A stretch of 63,978 bases of DNA, the filler included, from Basidioascus undulatus (lineage: Eukaryota), in the NCBI GenBank assembly GCA_000826855.1. It is 4 parts of 4 records of this genome, joined end to end, with 100 filler letters (N's around TTAATTAATTAA, not from the genome) between each part and the next. Parts side by side here need not be neighbours in the genome. Positions count along the whole stretch, not along the records: positions 1 to 10,903 come from JTLS01001069.1; 3 more parts are not named here. The stretch is one strand, 5' to 3'. This document shows, piece after piece, positions 1-53,097 of this stretch (position 1 is the stretch's first letter; each line of letters opens with the position of its first letter). The notes under the pieces were generated by a model. That model did not search any database and was not told the origin of the DNA. It was given only the letters and a program-made list of their open reading frames with translations. Made by a program: the position numbers and the translations under genes.

Positions 1-1568
1 CTAGAGAGAGAAAGAGAAAATGAAGACGCACGGCCGTCCTTCCACCCCGCCGCGCTGGCGCTCGTGCCCGGCGCGCTCGGTGCATAGCGCGCATCCTCGT
101 CCGCATCCTCCGGCCACCCCTGCGCGCTCTCAACGCCCCACCGGAACATGCCCTGGCTCCGCCCGCTCCCACTGCTCCCGCGGCTGCCCGACGCGCGCGT
201 CCCGCCCGAAGCGACCGAGTGCGTTTCAGCCCAGCTCGACATGGAGTGCGCGGTCGCTAGCGAGCGACGCCAGGACGAGGGGGAGGGCGGGTCGGGTGGC
301 GCATCCGTCGCGCATTTGATGGAGAGGTTGTAGATCAGCGGCTCGACGCCGCTTGCGAATTCGAGATGGACGCGGATTGCGTACTGGATTGAGTGGAGAA
401 ATGCGGTTGTTTCAGTGTTGGGCAAGATCAGGCAGGGTGAGCGAAGAAAGCTCGGCGCACCGATATGACCACGAATGCGGATTCCGCGCTGGGCAGTTCC
501 CCCGCCGGGGAGAGATCGACAACGCCGTGCCAGCGCCCCTCGACATGCTCGAGCCGGAGCGCGTCCGTGCTCGAGAGCTTCTTGACGAACGGCTGGCGCG
601 GGTCCGTGAACGCCAGCGTGCGGTACAGGCCCAGCTTGACGCTCTGCGGCGGGATCGAGTCCGGCCCGAAGTCGAGGATGAGCGGGACGTGCGAGGAGAG
701 AGGGAAGATGCGCGTTTTGGGGATGAAGATCTGGGGAGTTGCGAGTTGTTAGTTTAGAGGAGAGGGTGGTGGGTGGGGAGAAGGGAGAAACGCACGCCGG
801 AACCTGGGAGGTCGTGCATCGGCATTGCGGACCACGCGGACGTGTCCTCCAGAGAGCGTGTTGGAGGAGCGAACGATCTCGGGATCAGCTGGATGGGCGC
901 CGATATACTGCATTGTCACCAGCGGACGACAAAGGCATTCAGTTTCGGGCTCTGCTCGACGGATAACTACGAAGGCACCTCGGGTACTTGTCGCCCAGGA
1001 ACTTGCTCCGTACCCACTTCACGGCGAGCTCGTACTCGACGTATACGTTCCTGCGCGTGCGGGCACCCTGGTCGTGATGGCGCTCGCTGCTGACGCTCGG
1101 CGGAAGTGGCCGCCCTGCGTCATCGCCCGGGGGGATCGCTAACTCGAAGGACTCGCCAGGGACAATGTCTTGGAGCGTGACCGGCTGGCAGACGGGGAAG
1201 ACAGCGGCGTGCGTGTGTTGAACGGAGTCCCAGGCGGTGAAGACGTCTTGCTTCTTTTCGGGCAGGTTGTTGTAGAAGCGGCCGCTGAACTGCAGGCGGA
1301 ACGCGAGATCAGCACCGCCCGCGGAGATCGAATGCTTCCATGAGCCGGAATTTACGGTGGCGGTGAGCTTCAGCTTAGAAGTCGATGGCTTAGAGCTGAG
1401 CAGCTCGACGGTGCCACGGAGGACATCGCCAGGCGCGAACCGGGCCTGGCCGGTTTGCGGACAGCGCTGGGGTGCGAAGAGCGTAAGTCGCGCGTGCCTC
1501 GTTTCGATGGAGACGGTGTGGACCGCTGGGTTGAGCGGAGCCGCGGCCGAAGGCGGCTGAGAGAACAT
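1..1568 (-). CDS. Arrestin-fold (arrestin N/C-like) protein, multi-exon; 3' end uncertain
   Basis: ATG at 1568. Beta-sandwich segments typical of fungal alpha-arrestin-like proteins: FAPGDVLRGTVEL, LPPS, VYVEYELAVKWVR, and later exons IFIPKTRIFPLSSHVPLIL and YAIRVHLEF. GT-AG introns. One frame stops at 226; another coding-like frame runs to the window edge. Confidence 0.6.
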
Positions 1569-2715
1569 CGAGAGAGGCTATGAATGAAGTGCGAGTGGCT
1601 GAATGATCGAGGTCCTGCTGCGGGACCGGTTCAGCTTCTTCCCCGGACTTGGATTGAAGGAGCGAGGGTGAGTACAAGGTAGGTCCGGTAAGTACTATTC
1701 ACAGTCGTCAGGAGGACGAGGGGGAGTGAGTGGGCGGAGGCCAAAGAGAGCCAGGCGCGGGCGCGAAAGCGATAGAACAAGTTTCAGGCACAGGGTCCGC
1801 GGCAGTGAGTGCCGAGCAAGCTGAAACGCTGAGTGAGTGAGGGAGGCCGCGCTGCTTTATGCAATTTCTTGCAATTATTCTGTCGGTGTCACTTTGAGGA
1901 GCGGATACCGGTGGATGTGGCCTATTCGGTGTAAATGAAGCAGCCACTTTACGAGTTGGTACGCAGGAAATGCAACAGGACAAATGCGCCGTTGCCTGGG
2001 CACGTCATTTCCAGCGGGTGGGGGCAAAAGGCCGCAGCATGATAGTACAGCCAACCATCATTGCCGAAGTCTAGCAAGCCCTTCGTCTGCTTTGAAAACC
2101 AATGATCAGGGGGCACAACATACCGGAGTAGCAACCGGGTTCTTACGATGATCAGGACAATCGAAACCGCATGACGAAAGGCCTGGGAGCGATGAATGAG
2201 GACAACGCTGTCCGAAATCCGGGACCCGGCTGCTGGACGAATACATCAACCCAAAGCTCCCAGCCAGAGCAGGAGAATGTGCTTGAGAGGACTTTTGCAT
2301 CTGTAATCATCTTGAATAAAAATGTCAGTAGCTGCTCTCGCGGCCGGCCAGATGCGAGGGACAAATGTGCAACGGACAACGAACCCGATGTTAACACTTT
2401 TTACTCATGCCAGCCAGTTCACATACAAGGCGACAGCTCTGAGCTTGCAAGTGGGTTTATTAATCTGCTCGAACTCATTGATCCAATGTGGTCTACAAAC
2501 TCGCAGGAAACCCTGCAAGCCTGAGTGACTGCAAGTTCAGCACTTGAACGCTTGCAACGACCTCCTGCCCCGGGCAACGGTCTCGAAGATGAGCTACTCT
2601 TCGAAATTGATCCTGAATAAAATGTTTATTTTGACTCATTTCAACAAGAACCCGTCAATGTGCCAGAAGACATGAAGCCTAAGTTTGAAAGTGCAACGTG
2701 CACTGGCTTGCTCAA

Positions 2716-3700
2716 CTAGGACCATGCCATGCTATCCGTGCTCAAGTCTACTGAGGCCGACTGTATCTGTGGTATTAAACTGAGAACTTTGCCCCTCAAA
2801 AGTATCTTGTCTTTCAGCTCCAGGGGCTCGGAAGGGGCTTCGGATTCCTCGGCTGCTTTGCTTGACCGTTGCCATGTGCATGGGACAACGGCCGCCTTGC
2901 TGTGACCCTTTCCTGAGGTCCGAAGAAAGATAATCACAATCGTGAAATTCAGAGCAAAACTATCATGCGAGATGCTTAGTCGAATATGTGGGGTCAAGCA
3001 CCGGCAGTCAAAGACGGGCAGGCGTGCCAGTTTTTCAACGCACCTTCCGCATGCTGGAGCTTCGTCGAGGTGCTACTAGAAACGATCAAACAAAAAGTGA
3101 ATGGATATTTTCCTTATAGTGTGTATTCGTATCTTCTTCTCCCTTAGTATGGTACCACGCATCACGGGTTTACAGCAAGATGCAGCAAACTTTTGCATCC
3201 AGCTCGACATCTGACTCCACCACCTAACCTTCTCGGCCCATTCAGCATACATCTTGCTGTCCGTTCCACAAGTTTCAGAGCCCACTCGTGTGTTTCGACG
3301 TACTCTTTGCGGTGTCGCACCGTACCTACATCTTGCAGTGTCAGAAGCAGGCCAGCTCGCAGATACGCCGAAGAACAACGTCCCCTCAAGCAATTGCGAG
3401 CGCCGCCCTCTTCCGTGACACTTTGCTATCTCACTTATCTCATCCTTTCCGTATACGCACGCCCACGAGATCGCCTCGTATTCTTGCCGTTGCGCCATCC
3501 TGCTTGAGCCTTTGCATACAACACACACTCCGGCGACGCCATCCGACTTCAAGGCGCTTGCCGATGATCCTAAACCGATGTATTCCGAGGAGAAACCGGC
3601 AACAAAACGGGCAGGCACAGCAACGATACAACACGGACAAATGGCAGTGACGAGTTCCGGGGGCAGCGGCGCGAAAGCTCGCACAAATTTGAAGATGGAA
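2716..3700 (-). pseudogene. Degenerate F-box/LRR-like gene
   Basis: FAPLPPELVTAIC...VCVVCKGSSRMAQRQEYEAIS resembles the basidiomycete F-box pattern LPxEL..I...LCLV.K...AQ..LY..I. No nearby ATG; downstream LRR-like pieces lie in other frames. Confidence 0.4.
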
Positions 3701-3848
3701 CCGGGGGAAAGCAGAAAAGAGAGTGGTGTGGCACGGTGCGGGTGGAGGGTGGTAAGGCAACCCGTCCTGCTTGACGGCCATGGGAAGGATGAAGAACCGA
3801 GATTCACAGAGCAGGCGGAGGAAACATGATCATTGGGAGACGGGCAAA

Positions 3849-4403
3849 TCACTGGGAGTCGGCCTGGGCAGGTGTTGACATGATCAGGACCACGCTCCAG
3901 GGAGCCAAGTGGGTGCTGCAAGCAGACTCACCTCGGCCTCACGCTTCCAGGTCTTTCCACCGCGCATGTCACCGGGCAGGCCAGAAGGCTCGTTCTGTTT
4001 CGCATGAGCAGTTCAGGTCAGCCAACAGCGACCTCTGGACGACATCGCTGATGAAAGAAGACGCACGTCCGCCTCACGCTTCCAGGTCTTGCCGCCGCGC
4101 ATGTCACCCGGGAGGCCCCACGAGGGCTCGTTCTGTTTTGTATTAGAATAAGGAAGGGAATTTTAGCGGCCAGGCGCCTCTGAACCACATAGCTGATGGA
4201 AGAAGACGTACGTCGGCCTCGCGCTTCTCAACCGCGACGTTCTCCACGGAGTTCTGCTCACACAGAACCATATCCCACAATCAGGAGCCCGCACACCCGA
4301 TGTTTCCACGCGCGCGTCGTCGCACCTGAGCAGGGGTAGGGGCGGCGGACACGCCAACCGCAAGGGCAGCGACTGCTACGGCAGCGGCGGTGAAGAAACG
4401 CAT
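3849..4403 (-). CDS. Secreted Kex2-processed repeat protein (KEP) precursor, 87 aa, 5 exons
   Basis: Exons 4403-4326, 4253-4212, 4132-4067, 3994-3932, 3863-3849, separated by four phase-0 GT-AG introns of 68-79 nt. Protein: MRFFTAAAVAVAALAVGVSAAPTPAQNSVENVAVEKR-EADNEPSWGLPGDMRGGKTWKR-EADNEPSGLPGDMRGGKTWKR-EAEADSQ*. Signal peptide plus three KR-EA sites. Confidence 0.9.
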
Positions 4404-7400
4404 GACGATGGTGCTGGTTCGGGTCGAAGGAAGAAAGCGGGGTAGGGAACGTGGGCCGTCTATCAGAGATCTGGCGTAGTAGTGGGGCTTCGAGGAGGAG
4501 CGGGTGGAGGAAAGGGAGAGTTGGGCCTGTCGCAGGGGCAAGGTCGGGCCTTCTTGTACTAGCGCGAGCGGGGCACGGCAAATCGGCTGCTCTCATCAAC
4601 GCGCGCGAGACGCCGCCGCGTCTCACTGCCAAGGCTCCGCTCGAGATCGCCCCGCCCTCCTCTTCGGCATACTCCAGCCTCCTTCGCCTCTGGTACGCTG
4701 ACACCACAGCTCATCTTGTGTTCTTGGCCGCCAGCAGCACTCATACACCCTCACCGAGTTGCTGGTGCTCGCTACACAACGAAATTGTTAGAAAAAGAGG
4801 CTAGTCGCCCGCCCAGTCGGACATTCACACTGATTCGCACACTCCAGCTGCGTCGAACGAGCGTGTGCTCTGCAGTGGCGCAAATCCGCCCAAGACACCT
4901 CCAGCGGCAAAGAGCAGATCAAGCACGCCGAGCCGTATCACAGGCTGCCCACACGTTGAGCTTCGTCAAACACACGAAAACGCCAACTACGTCCGACGGT
5001 GCTGTGCTTGCTAGCCGTAAAAGGCATGGGCGTGCCTGCACGCGTGCAATTAATGTCATAAATGTCGCAGTGCTTAGCGTTGTGCGGCTCATCCCGGCTG
5101 GACCTGAGCGAACCTTGCTCCAGCCTCTGGACAACGTGCCTGCAGGCAGCAGCTTTTCATTCAGACTGAGTCGCTGAGCTTGCGAAGCGAAACGGACGCA
5201 TGCCCTTGGTCTTATGCGCCCAGAAGCTCAGTGATTCTCGTGTTGTTGGAGTCGCGTACGTATCATCATCCAAGACGCATTCAATTGTTCGCTAAGGACT
5301 TGACGTCGAATGACAGGCGAGACACACAGCGCAGCGCCATATTAATAGTATCGACCTACATACCCGCCGCAATAATTATTGTGTTGATCTTCTTTGCCCC
5401 TCAAGAATAATCGAGTTACTCCGATTGCCGCAGCTTCCCAACAGAAGATTCTTTCCGCTTGCGCAGCGTCATGAATCTCTACGGCCGCCGCCAGTAGCCG
5501 CCACCCCCGTGAACGCGAGCAGTTTGGCCTGCTGTTACCCCTTGGGTGATGAGTTGATCGTGGAAGGTATCCTCGCTCGGCCGGGCCCCAGACTACTTGC
5601 TATTTGCTTTGAGTCTTTGCCGCAGGCTTTCACGACTGCCTTGAGCGCCCAGCACACTGCCATGTTATCTATCACTTTGGGGATGTAGCCCCTCGAAGTC
5701 GTTGTCGCTGATGACCGCGCGGAACAGCGCTGTCCCGAAGGATCAGTCCAAAATGTTGTAGAGCATGATGGTGAGCTACCTGCGGGTCCCATGGTGCATG
5801 GTGTTAAGCGGACGGCAGCGAAGAAGTATGCAAAGTGGAGCAGCGGGTCACCTGCCACTCGACTCGCAGAGATCTACTACATCATCCCCGGCTCTGCATC
5901 CTTTTCTCCGCGACCGTCGTCATTCTCATCGGAGTATAAAGGGCCCCCTTGTATTCCTATGGACATGCAAATCTCAGAATCCTTCAGAAATGCGTCTTGC
6001 GGCAACTGCGGTGAGCCTTTCACACGCAGTACAGCACCGGAACAGCATTTCCCGATATGCACAAGTCTGCAAGATGCGCCGTACCGGTACTGCATGATTG
6101 CAGTGTGCTCAGAGACGAAAAACACGTACCATCGCTTTCCAGTAAATGGGCTCTACTAGGTGTAGAGTGTACAATGAGCATCGTGAGGCCGCTCGTCGCA
6201 CAAGTTGAAAGATTCTGGCGCTGAATGCAGGCCGCAGCGGCCCGCACGCGCCGAGCATGTCACGCAAAACAGACACATCCCAAGTCAGACAATACATACT
6301 ACCAGGACTCATATGCATTCAGAAGACACTCGAAGAGAATGCCCCCGAATTACAGCTGACCATGCCAGACGTAGAGCCGGCTTTCCGATCTGCCGCTGCC
6401 CTCTAGCATGTCTGCAGAAGCTCAGTCCCAGAGGCCGTGTGATCCAAAGCAAGAGAATATTTGTTTGGGACAAGGGAGTTCAAAGAAGTAGCCTCTGATG
6501 GGCTTGTGTGCGAAGATGTATTTGTTGAATGGATGTGCGTCGGACGACTGCGACTTGCACAGCGTCACGATATGCACATCTACAACCTAGTCTCCCCGTT
6601 CGATCCTCGATCGATGACCCTAAACGGTTGTCAAAACATACACCTATGAATCGTGAAGGGTTTCCAGACCAGTCGTTGCACTGGTTGCTCCTGCCCTGGG
6701 ACGGTTATGACTTCGTCCTCAGACAGCCTTCTCCTGCTGAGTTTCTAATATATTGGTCCCAATGAAAACAAGTCAAAATATTTGATGTGTTTTGAAGTCC
6801 TGCGCTGCCTCTTCGGCCTCACCCGCAGGCAGTGATCGGTCGCCTTGGGGACCAGGTCGATCGGACTGAGGAACGAATCCCACTGCTCGTGCCATACCGA
6901 CATCTCCGGAGTCCCATTTGACTGTTCTACGTAGATTCCAAATGTACATGCATAAATATCCGTACTCCGCCAGTGGAGGGGCATCATCATCTCTTTGTCA
7001 ACACTCCCACTTCTCCTGCTGCACAACGATGCTCTTCACCCTACCTTCCCATGCCCGTCCGCGATCGTATCTCCAACCACACCTCTTTCCACCGAATGCA
7101 AGTAATGAGCGTGAATGTTCAGTCAACCCGGCCGTGCGAGGCGAGCGGCAAGGCGCCTGCGGCGGTCATGTGGCGCCGGCAAGGCGCTTTTGCGGCTGGG
7201 TGGCGCGGTGTGGCACACCGTCGAGGCTGAGCTGGGAGAACTTTGTTGCTTTCATTCGCTTTAGTCTTTTGTTCGTTCAGGTCGGCGAATTGCACTTGTT
7301 TGGTCCCGTCACACCCGGACGAACGGTACATAAACATCCGCGAGCGGTCGTGCCGGCGGACCTTCCGCCTGGTGAGCAGTCCTGGCTGACCCAGCGGGTG

Positions 7401-8287
7401 TAACAAAGAAATCGATGGCAAGGGCTGCAGAGGAGAAGATGTCGCAGGCACAGAACACCGGCCAAGACATGGAGGATTTATGTGAATGATGGAAGGCTGA
7501 GCAAGAGGCAGAGTGAAACTGCCAGTCAGACCGAGCTCGAGGACGGTCTGCAGCCCGCTACCATAGGGCATCTGTAGCAGGACCCCTACCTTGCTTGGGA
7601 CCACAGGTTAGAATGCCTCCCGGTGGTATAAGAGGAATGATAAGAGCTCAGGCAGGGTTGAATACGCCGGCGCGGTGTGAGAGTTTCAATTCGACTGAGG
7701 CAGAACAGTATATTCCACTGCGGGGAACACTACTGTACCACTACTCACAATTATTCCATAACCGCAAAGCGAAGGGAATACACACCAACTTCAACCACCG
7801 TCTCGATTTTTCATGATTCCCAGTGCTTCTCTCCGAAGAGAGTGAACTAGCACAGCGGCTGGATCACGTTGTATGCTTGCTACTGTCAGAGTAGCTAGCG
7901 CGGAAAACGGTTTTGGCAATATTCGGAAAGAATTTTGTGTTTTCTTCAGACTGTTCAAAAGCGTAGTTGGGCGAATAGGCTGTCGAGGTAGCACGACTCG
8001 GACTCGGAGCTCACTTCAGGGCAGTCACAGACGCACCCATGGGAAGCGATTTGAAGGAGTTTCAGGCCGTTAGTAGTACCGTTAGGGATTTCAAGGGAAT
8101 ACAGAATTCGGAAGCGAGCGGGAATAGCGGAATACGGAATGGGCTGTCGTCTCATCCATGCGCCCGTCGCCGTCTCTTCTTCCCAAACCATCACCATCCC
8201 AGACGCCCAGTCAGCTCGTCTGCGCAAGCCATTTTATAACTCCACCTAGATTTTCTCAAAGCCATCCGCATTTTCATCACCTCCACG

Positions 8288-9151
8288 ATGCCTGTTCACC
8301 AGCTCTCCCTCGATGTCCTCGGACTGATCGTGGACGCGGTCGCCACCCTGCCTCACCTGCGTGCCTACCGCTACGACTCCGCCTCGCTTGCGACTCTGGC
8401 CTCTCTCTGCCTCGTCATGGCGTCAAGGGGCTCGCCCAGCCCAAACTATACGCCTCGTTCAACTTCTCCAAGATCAAAACCCGTGATGCTCGCGGCCGGC
8501 AGACATTTGAGCGCTTCTAGTTCCGTGTCGGCAAACCCTGACCTCCTTCAGTACACTCGGTTCCATCTTCCTGCCTTCCGAGTCATTCTCAGGCATTCAG
8601 GTCAACGAAGAGGCATCTCTGTTCTGAGCACTGTGATCCAGTCCTTGAGCCATCATAAATCCAGTCTCGAGCGCTTTTCTATTCCTACAACGTACTCCAA
8701 GAGGTTGTTGACCTGATAGGAAGTTTCACCACACTCGAAGAACTTGCATGCCCGGAGATTCCTTTTCGCACTCGTCTTCTTCCATTTCGGCGGTACATAA
8801 GGCTTGCACGCTTGACTGTTTGGAAACACATCCTTCGCAAGCCGGACGTGGTCGATGCCATTCTCGTAATGCCATGCCTATAGCACGTTGCCATAGCTTC
8901 GGGATGGGCCTGGAAGTTTGACGGCTCTCCGATAGAGGTTATCCAGCAGCTTCTTATGGGCAGCTTGGCTCTGCGACGTGCCATTTTCGTGCTTCACTCG
9001 AATGCCTCCATGCTAAAAGCCGACTTCGAACATTCTCATCAAGCTCGAGCACGTGGCGGTCAACCTCGTGGTGGCTCCAGACAGCGTCTGGTTTGACCAA
9101 CGTATTGCTGACGGAACCATTTCGGATTTGGGGGCTGAGGACGAGGGTTGA
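8288..9151 (+). pseudogene. F-box/LRR-like pseudogene
   Basis: MPVHQLSLDVLGLIVDAV...LASLCLV, frameshift, KGLAQPKLY, frameshift, SVSANPDLLQYTR. Later LEELACPEI...MPCL*HVAI contains an in-frame TAG. Confidence 0.55.
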
Positions 9152-9557
9152 TGCGTCGCTCCATGGCGCTTCTCCTTGTGGTCCCCATTCTTGTTGTGGC
9201 AGGGGAGGACTGAGCAGGTTGTTGCAAATACCGGGGGGCGTTTACGCAGTGTCTGCACCATGGACATTTTGTTGCGAAGCTTGAACATCTTGCTGTTTCT
9301 CGCAATGCGAACTTGTCTGAAATCAAATAATCAAAGCGCCCGAGTGGTGTATCAACTGTGGCAATTTCCCGTACATCTCAAACCCAAGCTCCCTCGCTTC
9401 ACCATGAGCACGGGTGGGGGGCTCAGGGACTGTTCCCTTCCTGCTTCTGCAAGAAGGCTAGCGCTGGCATTCCGGCGCCGTTCCTTGTCATACCTAGTAA
9501 CCTGGCTTGACCAAAAGTACAGCTTGGAAGTTGGACAGATCGGCATCCAAAAAGAAG

Positions 9558-9639
9558 CTCTCTGGCCGGGAATTGAACCCGGGTCGCCCGCGGTCAGATG
9601 AATGACAAGCGGATATACTAGCCACTATACTACCAAAGA
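9558..9639 (-). tRNA. tRNA-Asp(GUC) with 10-nt intron
   Basis: Acceptor stem TCTTTGG/CCAGAGA; D-arm GTATAGTGGCTAGTAT; anticodon arm TCCGC-TT-GTC-A[ttcatctgac]C-GCGGG; T-arm CCGGG-TTCAATT-CCCGG; T5 Pol III terminator just downstream (9549-9553). Confidence 0.93.
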
Positions 9640-10602
9640 GTTGTCGCTGGAGTTGTTTTTCTACAAAAAGATATTTCAAGCCAGCCGTTGACAGGCTTTC
9701 GACCTTCACTTCGGTTCTCGCCTCTGTTTATGGTGTATATAATTGGCGGGAAACCGGCATTGTTTCCCCAAGCGTGTTCCGTTCCAAGGAACTTACTTGC
9801 CTTACCTGTTGATTGCGGGTCGCCTCTGCCTCTGCCTCTGGAAAGCTCCCTTGCTTCGTAGGCAGCTTGTGTGCTTTCGTCTGATGTACTCGGAACCTTC
9901 GTCCAAGGTGTAGATCCTGAAGTCCGGATACCAGGAGCAGAGGACACCCCACACATATCATAGCATCTTCTGTCCACCATCAGACTTCGCATATGTGGGG
10001 CTGCGCCGCTGGCTGAAGTTCTGTAAGAGATCACATATTCAAGTGTTAGGATAAGGTCTTATGAAAGAAAATGCTCTGCTTGTGTTACTTCGAGGCAATG
10101 CTTACTATCCGGTGCGGGCCGCTGCTCGCATCCTCGGCCTGCAACAAAGCTCGTGGCTCGCGGCGTCTTTCAACACTGCTCGAGCAGATTGCTTACTTTG
10201 CCCAGTAATACACATTGCGGCGCCAACGTACCAGACAGACTGCTGTGCCGTGCTCGCGGGATCCTGATGACTGGAGTTGTCCGCTGCAGCATTCCCAGTC
10301 CGCAGCGGTCACAGTCGCCTGCTTACATTGTGCACCGCTCGCCAGACTGGCATACTGGCATTCACAGAGTTTTTGCGGGCTCCGAACGTAGAGTTCTTGA
10401 TGAAGCGAGTCACATGCTATGAGTCGTGAAGCTCACAAGCGAGAGAGACGACCGCCTGAGGTCTCTTAGTCACACACACCCTGCCACTCGACTGGAGCGC
10501 CGTCAATGTTAGTCGCCAGCTTTTACCATGTTAGTTAGTTCTGGGCGGTCACTTAACAATGCTTCCCAACAGCCCAACTTTACATCTTTCTACACTGCTT
10601 CA

Positions 10603-10888
10603 ATGCCAAGCCTCCCCACCTTCCTCAAAAAGTCGAAGGCGCCCTCGCGCCGCTGCCCAACGAATCCACAGCGACACTCGTCCCACCAGCTCCGCACCTC
10701 CTCAGGCACATTCCACCCTGCCTTCACCCGTCGAATCGTCCGCGACGCTGATCAATTCGCCCGTGACCGGTCGGACCTCGCAGCAGATGGCGCAGCATGA
10801 GGCGACGATCAACAGGCTCATGGAACTCAACAAGAACCATGGGGTGGTGGGGTGTTACGAGTTTACGGGCGCGGTGATGGGGCGGTAG
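10603..10888 (+). CDS. Possible small hypothetical protein (needs a frameshift or unseen splice)
   Basis: MPSLPTFLKKSK in one frame and a GC3-rich C-terminus (HEATINRLMELNKNHGVVGCYEF) in another. No family recognised. Confidence 0.2.
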
Positions 10889-10903
10889 CTGGAGTTGGGG
10901 TAG

Positions 10904-11003
10904 NNNNNNNNNNNNNNNNNNNNNNNNNNNNNNNNNNNNNNNNNNNNTTAATTAATTAANNNNNNNNNNNNNNNNNNNNNNNNNNNNNNNNNNNNNNNNN
11001 NNN
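10904..11003. other. Artificial contig-joining linker
   Basis: N44-TTAATTAATTAA-N44; the core has stops in all six frames. Confidence 0.98.
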
Positions 11004-11612
11004 GACGCAGAGAAAGGTGCGGCTGAAGCGGGAGAGGACCATGAGAGGGTGAAGCCGGTTGCACAGGCGAGCTGAGGGGAAGCCAAACGCAGAGTTAGTA
11101 ATGCGAGCTTGGGGAAATAAAATATCGAAAAATGGACACACCTTCACCTCTACTTCCCGTACCTCGACGCCCACCCCACCCATGCTGAGCACAGTCCCCT
11201 CCCGAGCGCCGTACTTTTTCTCCTCAGGCACCACGTCCATCTCCCACTCATACTCGTCCCACGCGCCGCCCTCAGGAGCCTGGGGCCAGTCGACCTCGTC
11301 GCCCCACTGGACGAAGAACGTGCCCGCCTCGGACGTGCGCAGGGCCTGGAGGGCGAGCATGTAGTGCGCGTTGGCCGGGGCGGGGGCGAGGGAAAGGTAT
11401 TGCGTATAGGTGCGCGGCTCGCTTTTGGAGCCGAAGAGGAGCGGGCCGGCCGCGGGGGCGTGGAAAGGAGCGACCGAGGAGAGCCAGGGGGTTTGGAGGA
11501 GATTGGAGGAGGAGGGGGAGGGGGTGGTGAAAGGCGACTGGTGCATGGGGAGCGCCGTGGAGGACACGGCTGCTGAGGCCAGGAGCGCTAGGGCTGCGGT
11601 GCGGTGGTGCAT
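11004..11612 (-). CDS. Secreted protein, 5' part only (cut by contig end)
   Basis: MHHRTAALALLASAAVSSTALP signal peptide; strong GC3 bias; GT donor after VEVK. Family not recognised. Confidence 0.6.
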
Positions 11613-13266
11613 GATAGTAAATGAGTGTAGTATACTGAGGAACCTAGGAGGGAGCTGTACGTGGTAAGAAGACGAGGACGAGAGAAGGGGGGAACAAAAA
11701 CGCACCGATGGTTGAAACGTCTTCCTTCTCCGTTAGCGCTCCCAGGTCATGTACATGCCCCACCTAATGCATTCGGTGCATCTTTCACCCCCGGATCTGA
11801 TTCAACTGAGGCGCAGAAAAGAACGCGCCCGCCCTTGGGGGGTTCACGAGCACGCAAAGCCAGCGGAAAAGCACATGTCGGCAGCGCACCGCGGACTTTT
11901 GAGTCGCGCGTCAGCCATCGGCGCCACGAGCGCACTCAAGAACCGGAGGAACCGGCCGCGACCTTGTTTGATGAATCTTCTGCTTCTGTTGTATTAATTG
12001 TCTAGGTAGACAGACACCCACGGCTGGGAAAAGATTGGAAAAAAAAAAACCAGGAACGCACGTTCGACACAGCCGAAAGCGTCCAACGCTCACCAACTTC
12101 TCGGCCCACGATCGTTTCACAAACGTGATGCGACGTGGGTTAAGGTGTGCGGTGCATGCCGCCTGACCGCGAGAATGCGCCTTCGCCATAGTGAAAAGCT
12201 GAGGCACGATCGTCTTGGTCTCTTTGTACTTGAAGAGAGCGAGGAGGGTAAAGACACGATTTGAGCAGTTACAGACATTCCTCTTGCCTGTATCGGTATG
12301 CAACGCCTTTGATCAGCGAAGGGTCGCGGTCGAAGAGGAAAGCCTTGAAGCCGGGGATGGGGAAGCACGCGCACCTCCAGCGGCCACTTTGCTGTGGAAG
12401 TCAGATCTTGTGATGTAGTTGTGTAGAACCGCCTTGAGTGATCGCACCGGGCACCCACGGGTCTTAGTGAACGGAAGGATTCGCAAGATGGCACGATGCT
12501 GTTAAAAGAGTCAATCACTGTAGTTATACAAAGGGGTGCGGACGCTGAGGGTAACTCCCCAAAGAAGGAACGACAGCCTCAATATCGGTCTCAAGCATTG
12601 AGCGAGGACAGACGTGGGATGAGGCCTGTTCTGCTTAAAAATGGAAGTTCTCAGTGGAGCCGCCTGCACACTGTATATTCGAGTCCTTGCACTCGCGTGC
12701 GACTCTCGCATTCATTGCCACTGAAATTACCGTCACTGCGTTCGGAAACCATGGCAAGAGCGTCAAGTGAATGAAATAACTTGCCATGAGCTGTGACACA
12801 GCGCCGTCTCCGGGGTGTCTTTTCGTGAAGGTTGGGTGAAGTGAATAGTATTTAATGCGGCTATATTATCTTGGTAGGCTGGACTGTTGAACGAAGTACT
12901 TGCGTGTATGCATGCTATCTGGAGTACTGACACGTCGCTCCCGACTGCCTTGCGCGGCGCCCAATGCATACACTGCTGCACATAGATACATACTTAAACG
13001 GTCTACCACCTTCTTTCTCTTTTCTTCTTCTTTATTTGATAATGTGCATTAGGGCACAGATCACTGACGGTCCGTGGTGTTTGTCCATGCGATGTTCGCC
13101 TTCAGCACCCCCCCCTCCACCGCTCAACTGACCCATCTCACTGTGAGCATTGTCTCTTTCCGCAAGTTCCAAGTCCCCAAGGGAAGCGCGCCCCTTTCTT
13201 ATTGGTGTGTGGCACAATAGCTAGAGATATCGTCTATGTGTATCCGCCACACTTCACCAATGCGAG

Positions 13267-24904: not shown

Positions 24905-27824
24905 ATGCTCCTCAGCGCCAGCGGACACACCCTCAGGCGCACTACTCCCGCTCTCCTGCAGCGCACTTTCACCGCAACAGCATCCAGAATGTCCAACGCC
25001 GACGGCGTCGTCGTCTTCACTCAAGACGGCTCGGTTACATCCTCCGAGCAGTCGTCGCTCCAGAAGCTCTGGGACGGCGCCAGGACCAAGAACAAGCCTG
25101 GCGAGGGGAGGGTCTTCTACAATGTTGACTGCAAGGTGAGTGCGCAAAGACTCCTGGCAGACAGTCCTAGCGTGCGCTGACCAGGAGCACTCCCCGTAGG
25201 GCAAGGTCGCGGCTGTCCAGTCGCTCGGCAAGCTCCCCGCCAATGCGTCCGAGAACCTCAAGGCCGAGCGCACTCGCAAGGTATACTTCTTGTCTCTTAC
25301 AGCATTTCTTCCAGATCTTGACCTTAACCGCCCTCTTCAGGCCGCCGCTCTCGGTGCTCTCGCGCTCCGCTCTTCCGGCGCGTCCAGCATCGCCGTCGCT
25401 CCGGGCTTGTCGCCGCACGCTGCCGCGACGGGTGCGAACCTCGCGCTCTTCAAATATAGCCTGAAGAGCAAGAAGGACGAGAGCGTTCCGGAGAAGGTCG
25501 ATGTCTCTCCGCTTGAGCAGACCAAGGCGGAGAGCGGTGGGCTCGGATGGGAGTCGGGCGAGGTCTACGCCAGGGCCCAGAACCTTGCGAGGGAGGTGAG
25601 TCGCTTCCGTGTTGTGTACCAGGGAATGAACCAAGCTGAATAGAACGGTCGGTGGGGAACAGCTTATGGAGGCTCCGGCCAACTTCGTTACGCCGACGGC
25701 TTTCACCGAGCGCGCGAAGAAGGAGGTGAGCCCGGATCACATCACCCCTTTTTGCCACATTTGCATTGATCCATCTCTTGTGATGCAGCTCGAGGGCCTC
25801 AAGAACGTTGAGATCCACGTTCGCGACGAGGGTTGAGTTGCACGCATGCCTTACCATTCAGAAGACGTCTTCTCAAGCTTCCCCTTTCTCGCAGCGTGGG
25901 CCAAGGAGAAGAAGATGAACAGCTTCCTCTCCGTCGCTGCGGGCACCGACGAGCCTGCGAAGATCCTTGAGATGTGCGCCATACATCTTCCGATTGCCTT
26001 AATCACACGCAGAAGCTTATGTCGCTCTTGCAAAACAGCTACTACAAGGGTGCCGCGGACCCGAACGCACAGCCGCTCGCGCTCGTCGGCAAGGGCATCA
26101 CCTTCGACTCTGGGGGGATCTCGCTCAAGCCTGGTGCGTGCATAGCTATCTGCTCATGTTTAAGCCTCGCCGGCCATTGTTGACCCTTCATTGTGACTCA
26201 GGCGCTGGCATGAAGCTGTGCGTGCCTTATGTTCTTGGCGGGTCCGCCTACTTTCTCATCCAACGAACGTCCCCTGTACAGCATGCGCGGCGACATGGGC
26301 GGCGCTGCGACCCTATTCGCTTCCACCTGGGCCATCGCCAAGGTAACTGTTGTTTCTATTGCCGCGTTGTGACCCTTTCTCAGTCTCGCCTGTCTGCTTC
26401 GCAGCTCCAACTCCCCATCAACGTCGTCTTCGTCGCCGCGCTCACCGAGAACATGCCCAGTGGCAAGGCGACCAAGCCGGGTGACATCATCACTGCGATG
26501 AACGGTGCGCGGTCCTCCTGCTTGACATGGCGTACTCGGGGGCTTATGCACGGGTGGAATGATACAGGCAAGACGATCGAGGTGGACAACACTGTGCGAC
26601 ATACCATCGTATGCGATGCGTAGACGAGTCATCGAGGCTAATCAGCGGATTGACAGGACGCGGAGGGTCGCCTTGTTCTTGCCGATGCGCTGTGGTGTTC
26701 GTTTGTCTGCTGTTATCTCCCGCCGCTGCGAGACTTACATGGCATCATTCAAATCCCACAGATGCGAGCAGCACCTTCAACCCCCACGTACACCAACCGT
26801 CATATCTTTCTTAGTCAGGTGCTTGATCTGACTTGACATGTTGCCTGACTTGAAATAGACCGTCATCGACGCTGCGACCCTCACGGGCGCGATCGTCATC
26901 GCTCTTGGCGAGGTGTACTCGGCCGTGTTCTCGTCGGACGACAAGCTCTGGGAGGACTTGAAGACTGCTGGTGGTCAGTTGCTATGTTGTTGAAACGCGC
27001 AGGTGACCACGGGTGCTTACCTGGCGAGGTGAATCTGCAGAGGCGGAGGCTGACGAGTTCTGGAGGATGCCGTGAGTAACTTTGTTCAACGCTATGTATC
27101 GGGACGGTGTTGCTGATCACGCGCCCTGGCAGCCTCAACTCTGTCTACCTCAAGCAGGTCCGTATCGACTGACAGACATGCGCGTTGATGGGTTGGTGCT
27201 CATTCTGATCGCGGCTGCAGATCGACGGCACCGCGGCGGACCTCTGCAACGTTCGTCTATTGCTTTCGCCTGAACCCAGCTAGCAGTTGACACAATGCCC
27301 CTTCAGACTGGCGGTCGCCCCGCTGGCTCTTGCACGGCTGCCATCTTCTTGCGCGAGATGTGCGTCACGTCATCTCGTCTGCTGAAAACCCTTGCTACGG
27401 GTGTTGACCCTTACGTGTGATATGAACAGGGTCGAGGGCCTGTGAGTGCTGTACTGCATGGCACGACGGAGGAAATCAGCGTGCGTGCCACTGATGATTG
27501 TTGATGGTTTTATAGCGACCTCGAGAACGACGGGGCGAATGCAAAGCGCACGTGGGCGCACGTTGACATTGCTGGTTCGATGGGTAAGCTGCACAACTGG
27601 CTCTTTGCTCCACTGGAATGTGGAAAGCAACCGTGCTGACCTATCTGCGTCTATGCAGAGTGCACCCGTCCCGAGGGCTACAACGTCCGTTTCCCGTCTG
27701 CGCTCTTACTGGACATCTCTGACATTTTTCCTTATGCTTCATGCAGACCAAGGGCATGTCCGGCCGTCCTACGCGTTCGATCATCGAGTACGCGCGTCGC
27801 CTCGGCCTGCGGGCGCAGAAGTAA
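24905..27824 (+). CDS. M17 leucyl (cytosol) aminopeptidase, about 22 exons
   Basis: [95 protein letters not shown]. Confidence 0.96.
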
Positions 27825-42003: not shown

Positions 42004-42103
42004 NNNNNNNNNNNNNNNNNNNNNNNNNNNNNNNNNNNNNNNNNNNNTTAATTAATTAANNNNNNNNNNNNNNNNNNNNNNNNNNNNNNNNNNNNNNNNN
42101 NNN
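42004..42103. other. Artificial contig-joining linker
   Basis: N44-TTAATTAATTAA-N44. Confidence 0.98.
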
Positions 42104-52997: not shown

Positions 52998-53097
52998 NNN
53001 NNNNNNNNNNNNNNNNNNNNNNNNNNNNNNNNNNNNNNNNNTTAATTAATTAANNNNNNNNNNNNNNNNNNNNNNNNNNNNNNNNNNNNNNNNNNNN
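52998..53097. other. Artificial contig-joining linker
   Basis: N44-TTAATTAATTAA-N44. Confidence 0.98.

Follow-up and report, generated by a model that had tools for sequence, protein, structure and literature searches.

A likely Kex2-processed repeat protein with two Trp-ended peptide cores, encoded by five short exons in Basidioascus undulatus

Within a 63,978-nt stretch of DNA from the Basidioascus undulatus assembly GCA_000826855.1 (the whole stretch is hereafter called the window), positions 4403..3849 of the minus strand very likely hold a real intron-split gene, with native codon usage and intron style. This gene has five exons and four introns, and its 87-aa product is, as far as can be judged from sequence, a Kex2-processed repeat protein (KEP), from which a kexin, a Kex1-type carboxypeptidase and a Ste13-type dipeptidyl aminopeptidase would release two nearly identical peptides. 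We put the probability of this reading, processing steps included, at about 0.7.

The exon sequences were read from the minus strand of 3849-4403 and then spliced by script, which reproduced exactly, coordinates included, the 87-aa model with four phase-0 introns proposed by the first-pass annotation (Table 1). Every exon has a length divisible by three, and there is no upstream in-frame ATG within the open frame that holds exon 1 (open reading frame, ORF, 4281..4592). Each intron contains an in-frame stop when it is read through (in intron 1, after 14 codons), so that both cores share one frame by splicing only, and each carries one CTRAY branch-like motif, located 10-27 nt before its 3' end. 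Exon 2 has a codon score of 12.2 bits, i.e., it is coding-like. If intron 4 is retained, the frame stops 15 residues past KREAE and both cores stay unchanged. Upstream of the ATG, the pyrimidine-rich tract is possibly part of a core promoter or of a 5' untranslated region; CT tracts mark transcription starts in fungi. As the earlier annotation had pointed out, the gene is absent from ORF-based tracks, its exons being only 15-78 nt long, and gene callers probably miss it too.

Table 1. Coordinates of the precursor gene, of the tract upstream of it and of the linkers in the window
Feature	Position	Strand	Description
Exon 1	4403-4326	-	78 nt, 26 codons, ATG at 4403, MRFFTAAAVAVAALAVGVSAAPTPAQ; signal-peptide-like
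Intron 1	4325-4254	-	72 nt, phase 0, GTGCGA...CAG; CTGAT 27 nt from 3' end
Exon 2	4253-4212	-	42 nt, 14 codons, NSVENVAVEKREAD; pro-region NSVENVAVE, then first KR-EA-D
Intron 2	4211-4133	-	79 nt, phase 0, GTACGT...CAG; paralogous to intron 3
Exon 3	4132-4067	-	66 nt, 22 codons, NEPSWGLPGDMRGGKTWKREAD; core 1 NEPSWGLPGDMRGGKTW, then KR-EA-D
Intron 3	4066-3995	-	72 nt, phase 0, GTGCGT...CAG
Exon 4	3994-3932	-	63 nt, 21 codons, NEPSGLPGDMRGGKTWKREAE; core 2 NEPSGLPGDMRGGKTW, then KR-EA-E
Intron 4	3931-3864	-	68 nt, phase 0, GTGAGT...CAG; least certain junction
Exon 5	3863-3849	-	15 nt, ADSQ + TGA stop
Pyrimidine-rich (CT) tract	4491-4520	-	88-117 nt upstream of ATG, within a stretch of about 190 nt free of ATG
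Filler linkers	10904-11003, 42004-42103, 52998-53097		N44-TTAATTAATTAA-N44; artificially join at least four contigs

The comparison of the two core exons is one line of internal evidence that this gene is translated. Exons 3 and 4 differ by eight bases and by one 3-nt indel, which is a Trp codon. All eight differences fall on third-codon positions; seven of them are synonymous, and the remaining one exchanges D and E. With S = 14.5 synonymous and N = 48.5 nonsynonymous sites, the respective rates are dS = 0.77 and dN = 0.021 (dN/dS 0.027), and the synonymous excess has a P value of 2e-4 in a binomial test and of 5e-5 in Fisher's test. Such a dS together with such a ratio indicates an old duplication, both copies of which have long been kept to the same peptide: the two cores are under purifying selection. 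Gene conversion was rejected as the reason for the sameness of the cores, because the synonymous differences would then have been lost too. Mutation of the repeat-induced point mutation type was rejected as the source of the differences as well, only two of the eight being transitions. Introns 2 and 3 are identical in 67% of alignment columns, with indels (47 ± 3% in 200 shuffles, with a maximum of 57%), versus 85% for the core exons. The corresponding direct repeats pair 3914-3982 with 4049-4117 (86%) and 3984-4008 with 4122-4146 (84%), and the exon-plus-intron unit is the sole direct repeat of at least 84% identity (among three families of at least 25 nt found in the surrounding 9.7 kb). Tandem Repeats Finder did not report this unit, because it is present in only two copies, with diverged introns. 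The presence of one repeat per exon, together with the paralogous phase-0 introns, indicates that the gene became longer when an exon, along with its intron, was duplicated in tandem.

The spliced coding sequence, 264 nt in all, has a GC content of 67%, and of 77% at third-codon positions (GC3), while its introns are at 55%; the GC3 of the Pfam-anchored exons found elsewhere in the window is 82%. A codon log-odds model trained on these Pfam-anchored exons gave the coding sequence +34.8 bits in frame; the shifted frames scored -55 and -43, the antisense frames +5, +4 and -56, and the precursor introns had negative values. Among 5000 random segments of 261 nt taken from the window, only 0.8% reach the per-codon score of the gene. 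Two other ways of reading the locus were rejected, i.e., a plus-strand gene, the frames of which are Arg/Ser-rich mirror images of the repeat with antisense codon scores of at most +5 bits, and a 283-aa open frame (3076-3927), which has neither a Pfam match nor a coding-like segment.

The introns also resemble those of other genes in the window. The M17 peptidase gene contains, within 26134-26281 of the plus strand, a 16-nt micro-exon (26202-26217) with a GTGCGT...CAG intron on either side, one of 68 nt and the other of 64 nt. Removal of both introns makes a conserved catalytic-domain stretch continuous, which we take to be the conserved M17 motif, and the exons flanking the micro-exon match Pfam Peptidase_M17. 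The donor of intron 3 of the precursor gene is the same as that of both M17 introns. The junctions of the OYE, DDHD and Nfu1 genes, read by eye, have GTAAGT or GTGAGC donors and CAG acceptors, with introns of about 55-70 nt. Thus, tiny exons and introns of about 70 nt are normal in this assembly.

KEPs are recognized by a signal peptide and by similar short sequences located between dibasic Kex2 sites, and those that resemble alpha-pheromone precursors by an X-A or X-P dipeptide after the dibasic site. All these elements can be read in the spliced translation, where we found the secretion-type precursor with three KR-EA sites and two near-identical Trp-ended cores that the first-pass annotation had described. 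By simple rules, its N-terminus is signal-peptide-like: MR is followed by 16-17 hydrophobic residues and then by a VSA/AP small-residue site, the 9-residue Kyte-Doolittle mean of this leader reaches 2.82, and sites that follow the -3/-1 rule are found after residues 19-21. Similar short sequences lie between three KR pairs, and E-A comes directly after each of them (3/3), doubled to EAEA after the last one, across the exon 4/5 join. In-silico cutting at KR gives four fragments, i.e., a 15-aa pro-piece (plus KR), a 20-aa unit (EAD and core 1), a 19-aa unit (EAD and core 2) and a 7-aa tail (EAE and ADSQ); the two units are identical bar one Trp.

The processing that we propose would start with the 20 or so N-terminal residues, which would direct the precursor into the endoplasmic reticulum and be removed near VSA/AP. 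A Golgi kexin would then cut after each of the three KR pairs, a Kex1-type carboxypeptidase would trim K and R so that both cores end in ...GGKTW, and a Ste13-type dipeptidyl aminopeptidase would take off the N-terminal E-A. This would yield two linear peptides for secretion, an 18-mer (D + NEPSWGLPGDMRGGKTW) and a 17-mer (D + NEPSGLPGDMRGGKTW), with predicted monoisotopic masses of 2001.900 and 1815.821, the sole difference being one Trp. The predicted [M+2H]2+ values are 1001.957 for the 18-mer and 908.918 for the 17-mer, and would become 1101.997 and 1008.958 with E-A still attached. Both are predicted to be acidic, with an isoelectric point of about 4.6, a grand average of hydropathy of about -1.4 and a net charge of -1 to -2. 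The two cores contain neither Tyr nor Cys, which points to linear peptides, as was claimed at first. Some cleavage after single Arg residues has been described for KEPs (Vogt 2022, PMC9769878), so that a shorter GGKTW piece is possible.

Cleavage itself has to be weighed against another fate, in which the spliced gene gives an uncleaved small secreted or wall-associated protein and the KR pairs are incidental. Small secreted proteins devoid of known domains are indeed common in fungi (PMC7105643), but here the three KR pairs, each followed by E-A, stand exactly at the repeat boundaries, selection keeps the KR-EA flanks as well as the cores, and cleavage of precursors built in this way is documented in Pichia and Coprinopsis (PMC9769878). 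We hold such an uncleaved protein to be improbable. The layout of a KEP is also common to the precursors of dikaritins (PMC9769878), and the product could in principle be a cyclised or heavily modified peptide of the dikaritin or ustiloxin type, i.e., a RiPP, which is made on ribosomes and modified after translation. This is highly improbable: the cores have no Tyr, and no DUF3328 or other tailoring family was found among the 214 ORF translations scanned, although the precursor gene's own contig (window 1-10903) is only 10.9 kb long. The scanned set comprised 67 ORFs of at least 170 aa and 41 coding-like segments, both window-wide, and, for starts below 14 kb, 106 ORFs of 70-169 aa; beyond 14 kb, ORFs of this last size entered the Pfam scan only when coding-like. 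The earlier statement that this contig bears no DUF3328 or tailoring gene therefore stands for window 1-10903. Moreover, DUF3328 is found alongside only 6.1% of Basidiomycota KEPs (Umemura 2020, PMC7329392). The KEP with linear products, processed as proposed, is thus the reading that we retain.

Several observations speak against this reading. The donor of intron 1, with an A at +6, is less canonical than the other three; the 15-nt last exon is a prediction only; and the signal peptide is called by simple rules. The precursor has only two full repeats, which places it under the cut-offs of Umemura 2020 (at least three tandem repeats of at least 8 aa) and of Vogt 2022 (a fragment similar to at least two others). 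On the other side, its four fragments pass the first filter of Le Marquer 2019 (PMC6339444), i.e., four or more fragments, each with a minimum of 2 aa, after KR/RR cutting, a comparison that covers this first step. The gene also sits in about 9 kb of lower-GC sequence (window 1600-10903, GC 0.49-0.61) with almost no coding-like segment besides its own exons, and its taxonomic placement is drawn from another contig of the joined window. Finally, no relative of the precursor was found in protein, metagenome or text searches, for which the queries were insensitive exon read-throughs.

These homologue queries were 42-49 aa long and included intron-coded flanks, which makes the searches insensitive and their negatives weak. 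With the 49-aa frame around exon 3, a word-based search yielded four candidates among longer proteins, none of them scoring, and no candidate among proteins of similar length. A profile of the two core-exon frames had no match among 1,835,955,588 representatives at E <= 0.001, and Pfam gave none at E <= 10 for exons 1, 3 and 4 and for the 49-aa exon-3 read-through, each scanned alone. A pattern scan of metagenomes returned 233 stretches, of which seven passed tblastn and none was KEP-like (0/7). These seven loci were rejected as relatives, since they belong to one unrelated long ORF family that has GLPGDMRG alone in common with the precursor; on their contigs, which have a GC content of 53-61%, one long conserved frame with EPGFGLPGDMRGMIVEDEVDRG is found. 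The core strings had no occurrence in the searched supplements of PMC6339444, PMC7329392 and PMC9769878 and are absent from the searchable literature, though they could still stand in Table S2 of Le Marquer or in bioRxiv supplements. As for the earlier suggestion that the peptide is undescribed, this type of precursor is already documented in Basidiomycota. Among published KEPs, 2560 of 7878 stand alone, without homologues (Umemura 2020, PMC7329392).

The lack of a found homologue, the gene-poor lower-GC setting and the sub-optimal donor are also what would be expected of an unexpressed sequence, be it a chance frame or the decaying remnant of a repeat gene that was formerly longer. On the contrary, differences confined to third positions (8/8), with a dN/dS of 0.027 at a dS of 0.77, a frame-specific codon usage and four in-phase introns with branch-like motifs are those of a maintained gene, and the start, the signal-like leader and the stop are all intact. 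We thus regard an unexpressed sequence as quite improbable, and keep to the KEP precursor.

Since at least four contigs are artificially joined in the window, the genes located past 10.9 kb need not lie near the precursor gene in the genome. On its own contig, only one other gene is clearly coding-like (24-1574, minus strand). Neither the ORF scan nor the coding-like-segment scan gave a Pfam match for this gene, and its largest exon (984-1574) has only chance-level sequence matches in the PDB (E of 0.13 or worse). On a different contig, a coding-like frame of 57.6 bits (11163-11615, minus strand) begins with a signal-peptide-like MHHRTAALALLASAAVSSTALP and has no Pfam match; it may be another small secreted protein. 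The other contigs of the window carry fungal-type genes identified by Pfam, i.e., HSP9/12, Nfu1, OYE and DDHD. Among the best 120 matches of the Nfu1 frame, identity is 73-83%, and those named by organism are all Basidiomycota (Wallemia and many Agaricomycetes), with no closer relative among the matches listed. The precursor contig is linked to these fungal-type contigs by its codon usage and by the form of its introns. The host is likely a basidiomycete, a placement that rests on a neighbouring contig of the window.

Function is the weakest step of the explanation that we favor. The peptides would be anionic, Gly/Pro-rich and non-amphipathic, which makes a cytolytic or structural product less likely; strictly conserved, soluble peptides of this kind, rich in Gly, Pro and Trp, would suit the role of a ligand more than that of a product acting by lysis or at surfaces. 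Granted the rest, we only tentatively suggest that they are diffusible extracellular peptides acting on the fungus itself or on its neighbours. That the two GGKTW-ended peptides would form a diffusible basidiomycete self-signal, linked to density, stage or mating, perceived through uptake or at a surface receptor, and belonging to a previously unseen KEP lineage, is unlikely. The quorum or hormone-like role put forward in the first-pass annotation is conjectural. It is a serious possibility, still short of an even chance, that the precursor is a KEP processed as proposed and that its peptides are not signals; they would then contribute to the aggregation of hyphae or to their surface properties, or to dealings with other organisms, as has been proposed for MiSSP8 and for Rep1 repellents, or have no strong individual role. 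The Kex2-cut repeat and the knock-down phenotype of MiSSP8 from Laccaria bicolor (bioRxiv 10.1101/218131) go in this direction, and so do the six Coprinopsis cinerea KEP knockouts, which have no phenotype and for which the authors propose roles towards the biotic environment (Vogt 2022, PMC9769878). However, the predicted peptides are hydrophilic and anionic, and are neither hydrophobic nor cationic in the manner of repellents (Rep1) or of antimicrobial peptides; moreover, TW-KR is present in two copies, not as four DW[K/R].

KEP-derived peptides are numerous in basidiomycetes and almost none has a known role. To this set, the precursor adds a well-supported example, the cores of which are unusually long (17-18 aa) and strictly conserved, and, since exact masses are predicted for its products, it can be tested directly by liquid chromatography-tandem mass spectrometry and with synthetic peptides. 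It also reveals a blind spot: a two-core precursor split into exons of 15-78 nt is unseen by ORF tracks and falls under two published KEP cut-offs. Both of these censuses use annotated proteomes, so that such genes are probably undercounted in them. If the self-signal reading were true, its two-copy build would have hidden this lineage from two of the three published KEP screens.

Among known systems, the layout is that of Saccharomyces MFalpha1/2, with a signal peptide, a pro-region, KR-EA(EA) spacers suited to Kex2/Kex1/Ste13 processing and a Gly/Pro core with Trp. In Ascomycota, the number of repeats in alpha-factor precursors goes down to one (Le Marquer 2019, PMC6339444). Unlike Saccharomyces alpha-factor, the exons of the precursor, scanned singly, have no match to Pfam MF_alpha or MF_alpha_N. 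Another short secreted peptide is Qsp1 of Cryptococcus neoformans, which has the sequence NFGAPGGAYPW. The first-pass annotation had compared the products to it, and the likeness holds for composition, both being short secreted basidiomycete peptides, Gly/Pro-rich and ending in Trp. It extends neither to sequence relationship nor to architecture: the precursor is a two-copy KR-flanked repeat, whereas Qsp1, which has no Kex2 repeat architecture, is one peptide of 11 residues; it leaves the cell as a pro-peptide, undergoes extracellular maturation by Pqp1 and is taken up through Opt1 (PMC7537855). A KEP of Trichosporon (Cutaneotrichosporon) oleaginosus has a clear Ste13 signature and a repeated QSWGGCGGRGTPCW (Le Marquer 2019, PMC6339444); KLT43581.1, one of the six C. 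oleaginosum KEPs tabulated in PMC7329392, may be this protein. Like the cores described here, its core starts with xSWG, contains RG and ends in W, but it has two Cys and a PCW end, and its host is a tremellomycete yeast.

MiSSP8 of L. bicolor is the nearest relative in kind for which a phenotype is available. It is an agaricomycete protein, likewise small and secreted, with W-[K/R]R repeats and few homologues; Kex2 cleaves its repeat in vitro, it is needed for hyphal aggregation, and its knock-down blocks the formation of the mantle and of the Hartig net (bioRxiv 10.1101/218131). The MiSSP8 family is defined by four DW[K/R] motifs at intervals of 2-20 residues, whereas the precursor has two T-W-K-R and no D-W. 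The peptides released from MiSSP8 have 3-4 residues (DSDW), i.e., they are shorter than the predicted products of the precursor.

The closest systems are the KEPs of Basidiomycota themselves. The first-pass annotation considered secreted KR-EA precursors as foreign to basidiomycetes, where mating pheromones are a-type lipopeptides (PMC9769878, PMC6339444). This view is outdated, since numerous KEPs that bear Ste13 signatures and have cores ending in Trp are on record from Basidiomycota (PMC6339444, PMC7329392, PMC9769878). KEPs number 5.3 per basidiomycete strain, and 76 are related to six 'Basidiomycota pheromone' precursors, the criterion for this group being a BlastP E<1e-10 to one of the six (Umemura 2020, PMC7329392). 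KEP 490115 of C. cinerea (..QYKAPSW-RR-EPEP..) is cut and Ste13-trimmed, and behaves as predicted in Pichia; the supplement of the same study contains L. edodes GAW01176.1 (..GNAPDW-KR.., ending WKREAE) and P. ostreatus 171464 (..WPPSW-KR-EAEAEPEAWRADW-KR..), 1091723 and 1070124 (Vogt 2022, PMC9769878). With these alpha-pheromone-like KEPs, the precursor has in common a signal peptide, a short pro-region and W-ended cores followed by KR/RR and then by E-A or E-P and, as in this group (PMC9769878; PMC6339444, Fig. 7b), no tailoring genes are needed. By eye, its leader ..VSAAPTPAQ.. resembles the ..VSALPTPE.. of C. cinerea 490115, and its NEPSW resembles the APSW, PPSW and APDW cores of the C. 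cinerea, P. ostreatus and L. edodes KEPs. On the other hand, it has two repeats, versus 5-10 in these proteins, its cores are of 17-18 aa with an extra GLPGDMRGGKTW half, versus 4-10 aa, and, unlike them, it has each repeat on an exon of its own, the unit including an intron. The profile of the two core-exon frames gave no detectable homology to other proteins. From this likeness, which is by eye, it may be a diverged PSW/PDW-type KEP whose core gained the second half GLPGDMRGGKTW. In conclusion, the precursor would be a further example of a KEP type already common in mushroom-forming fungi.

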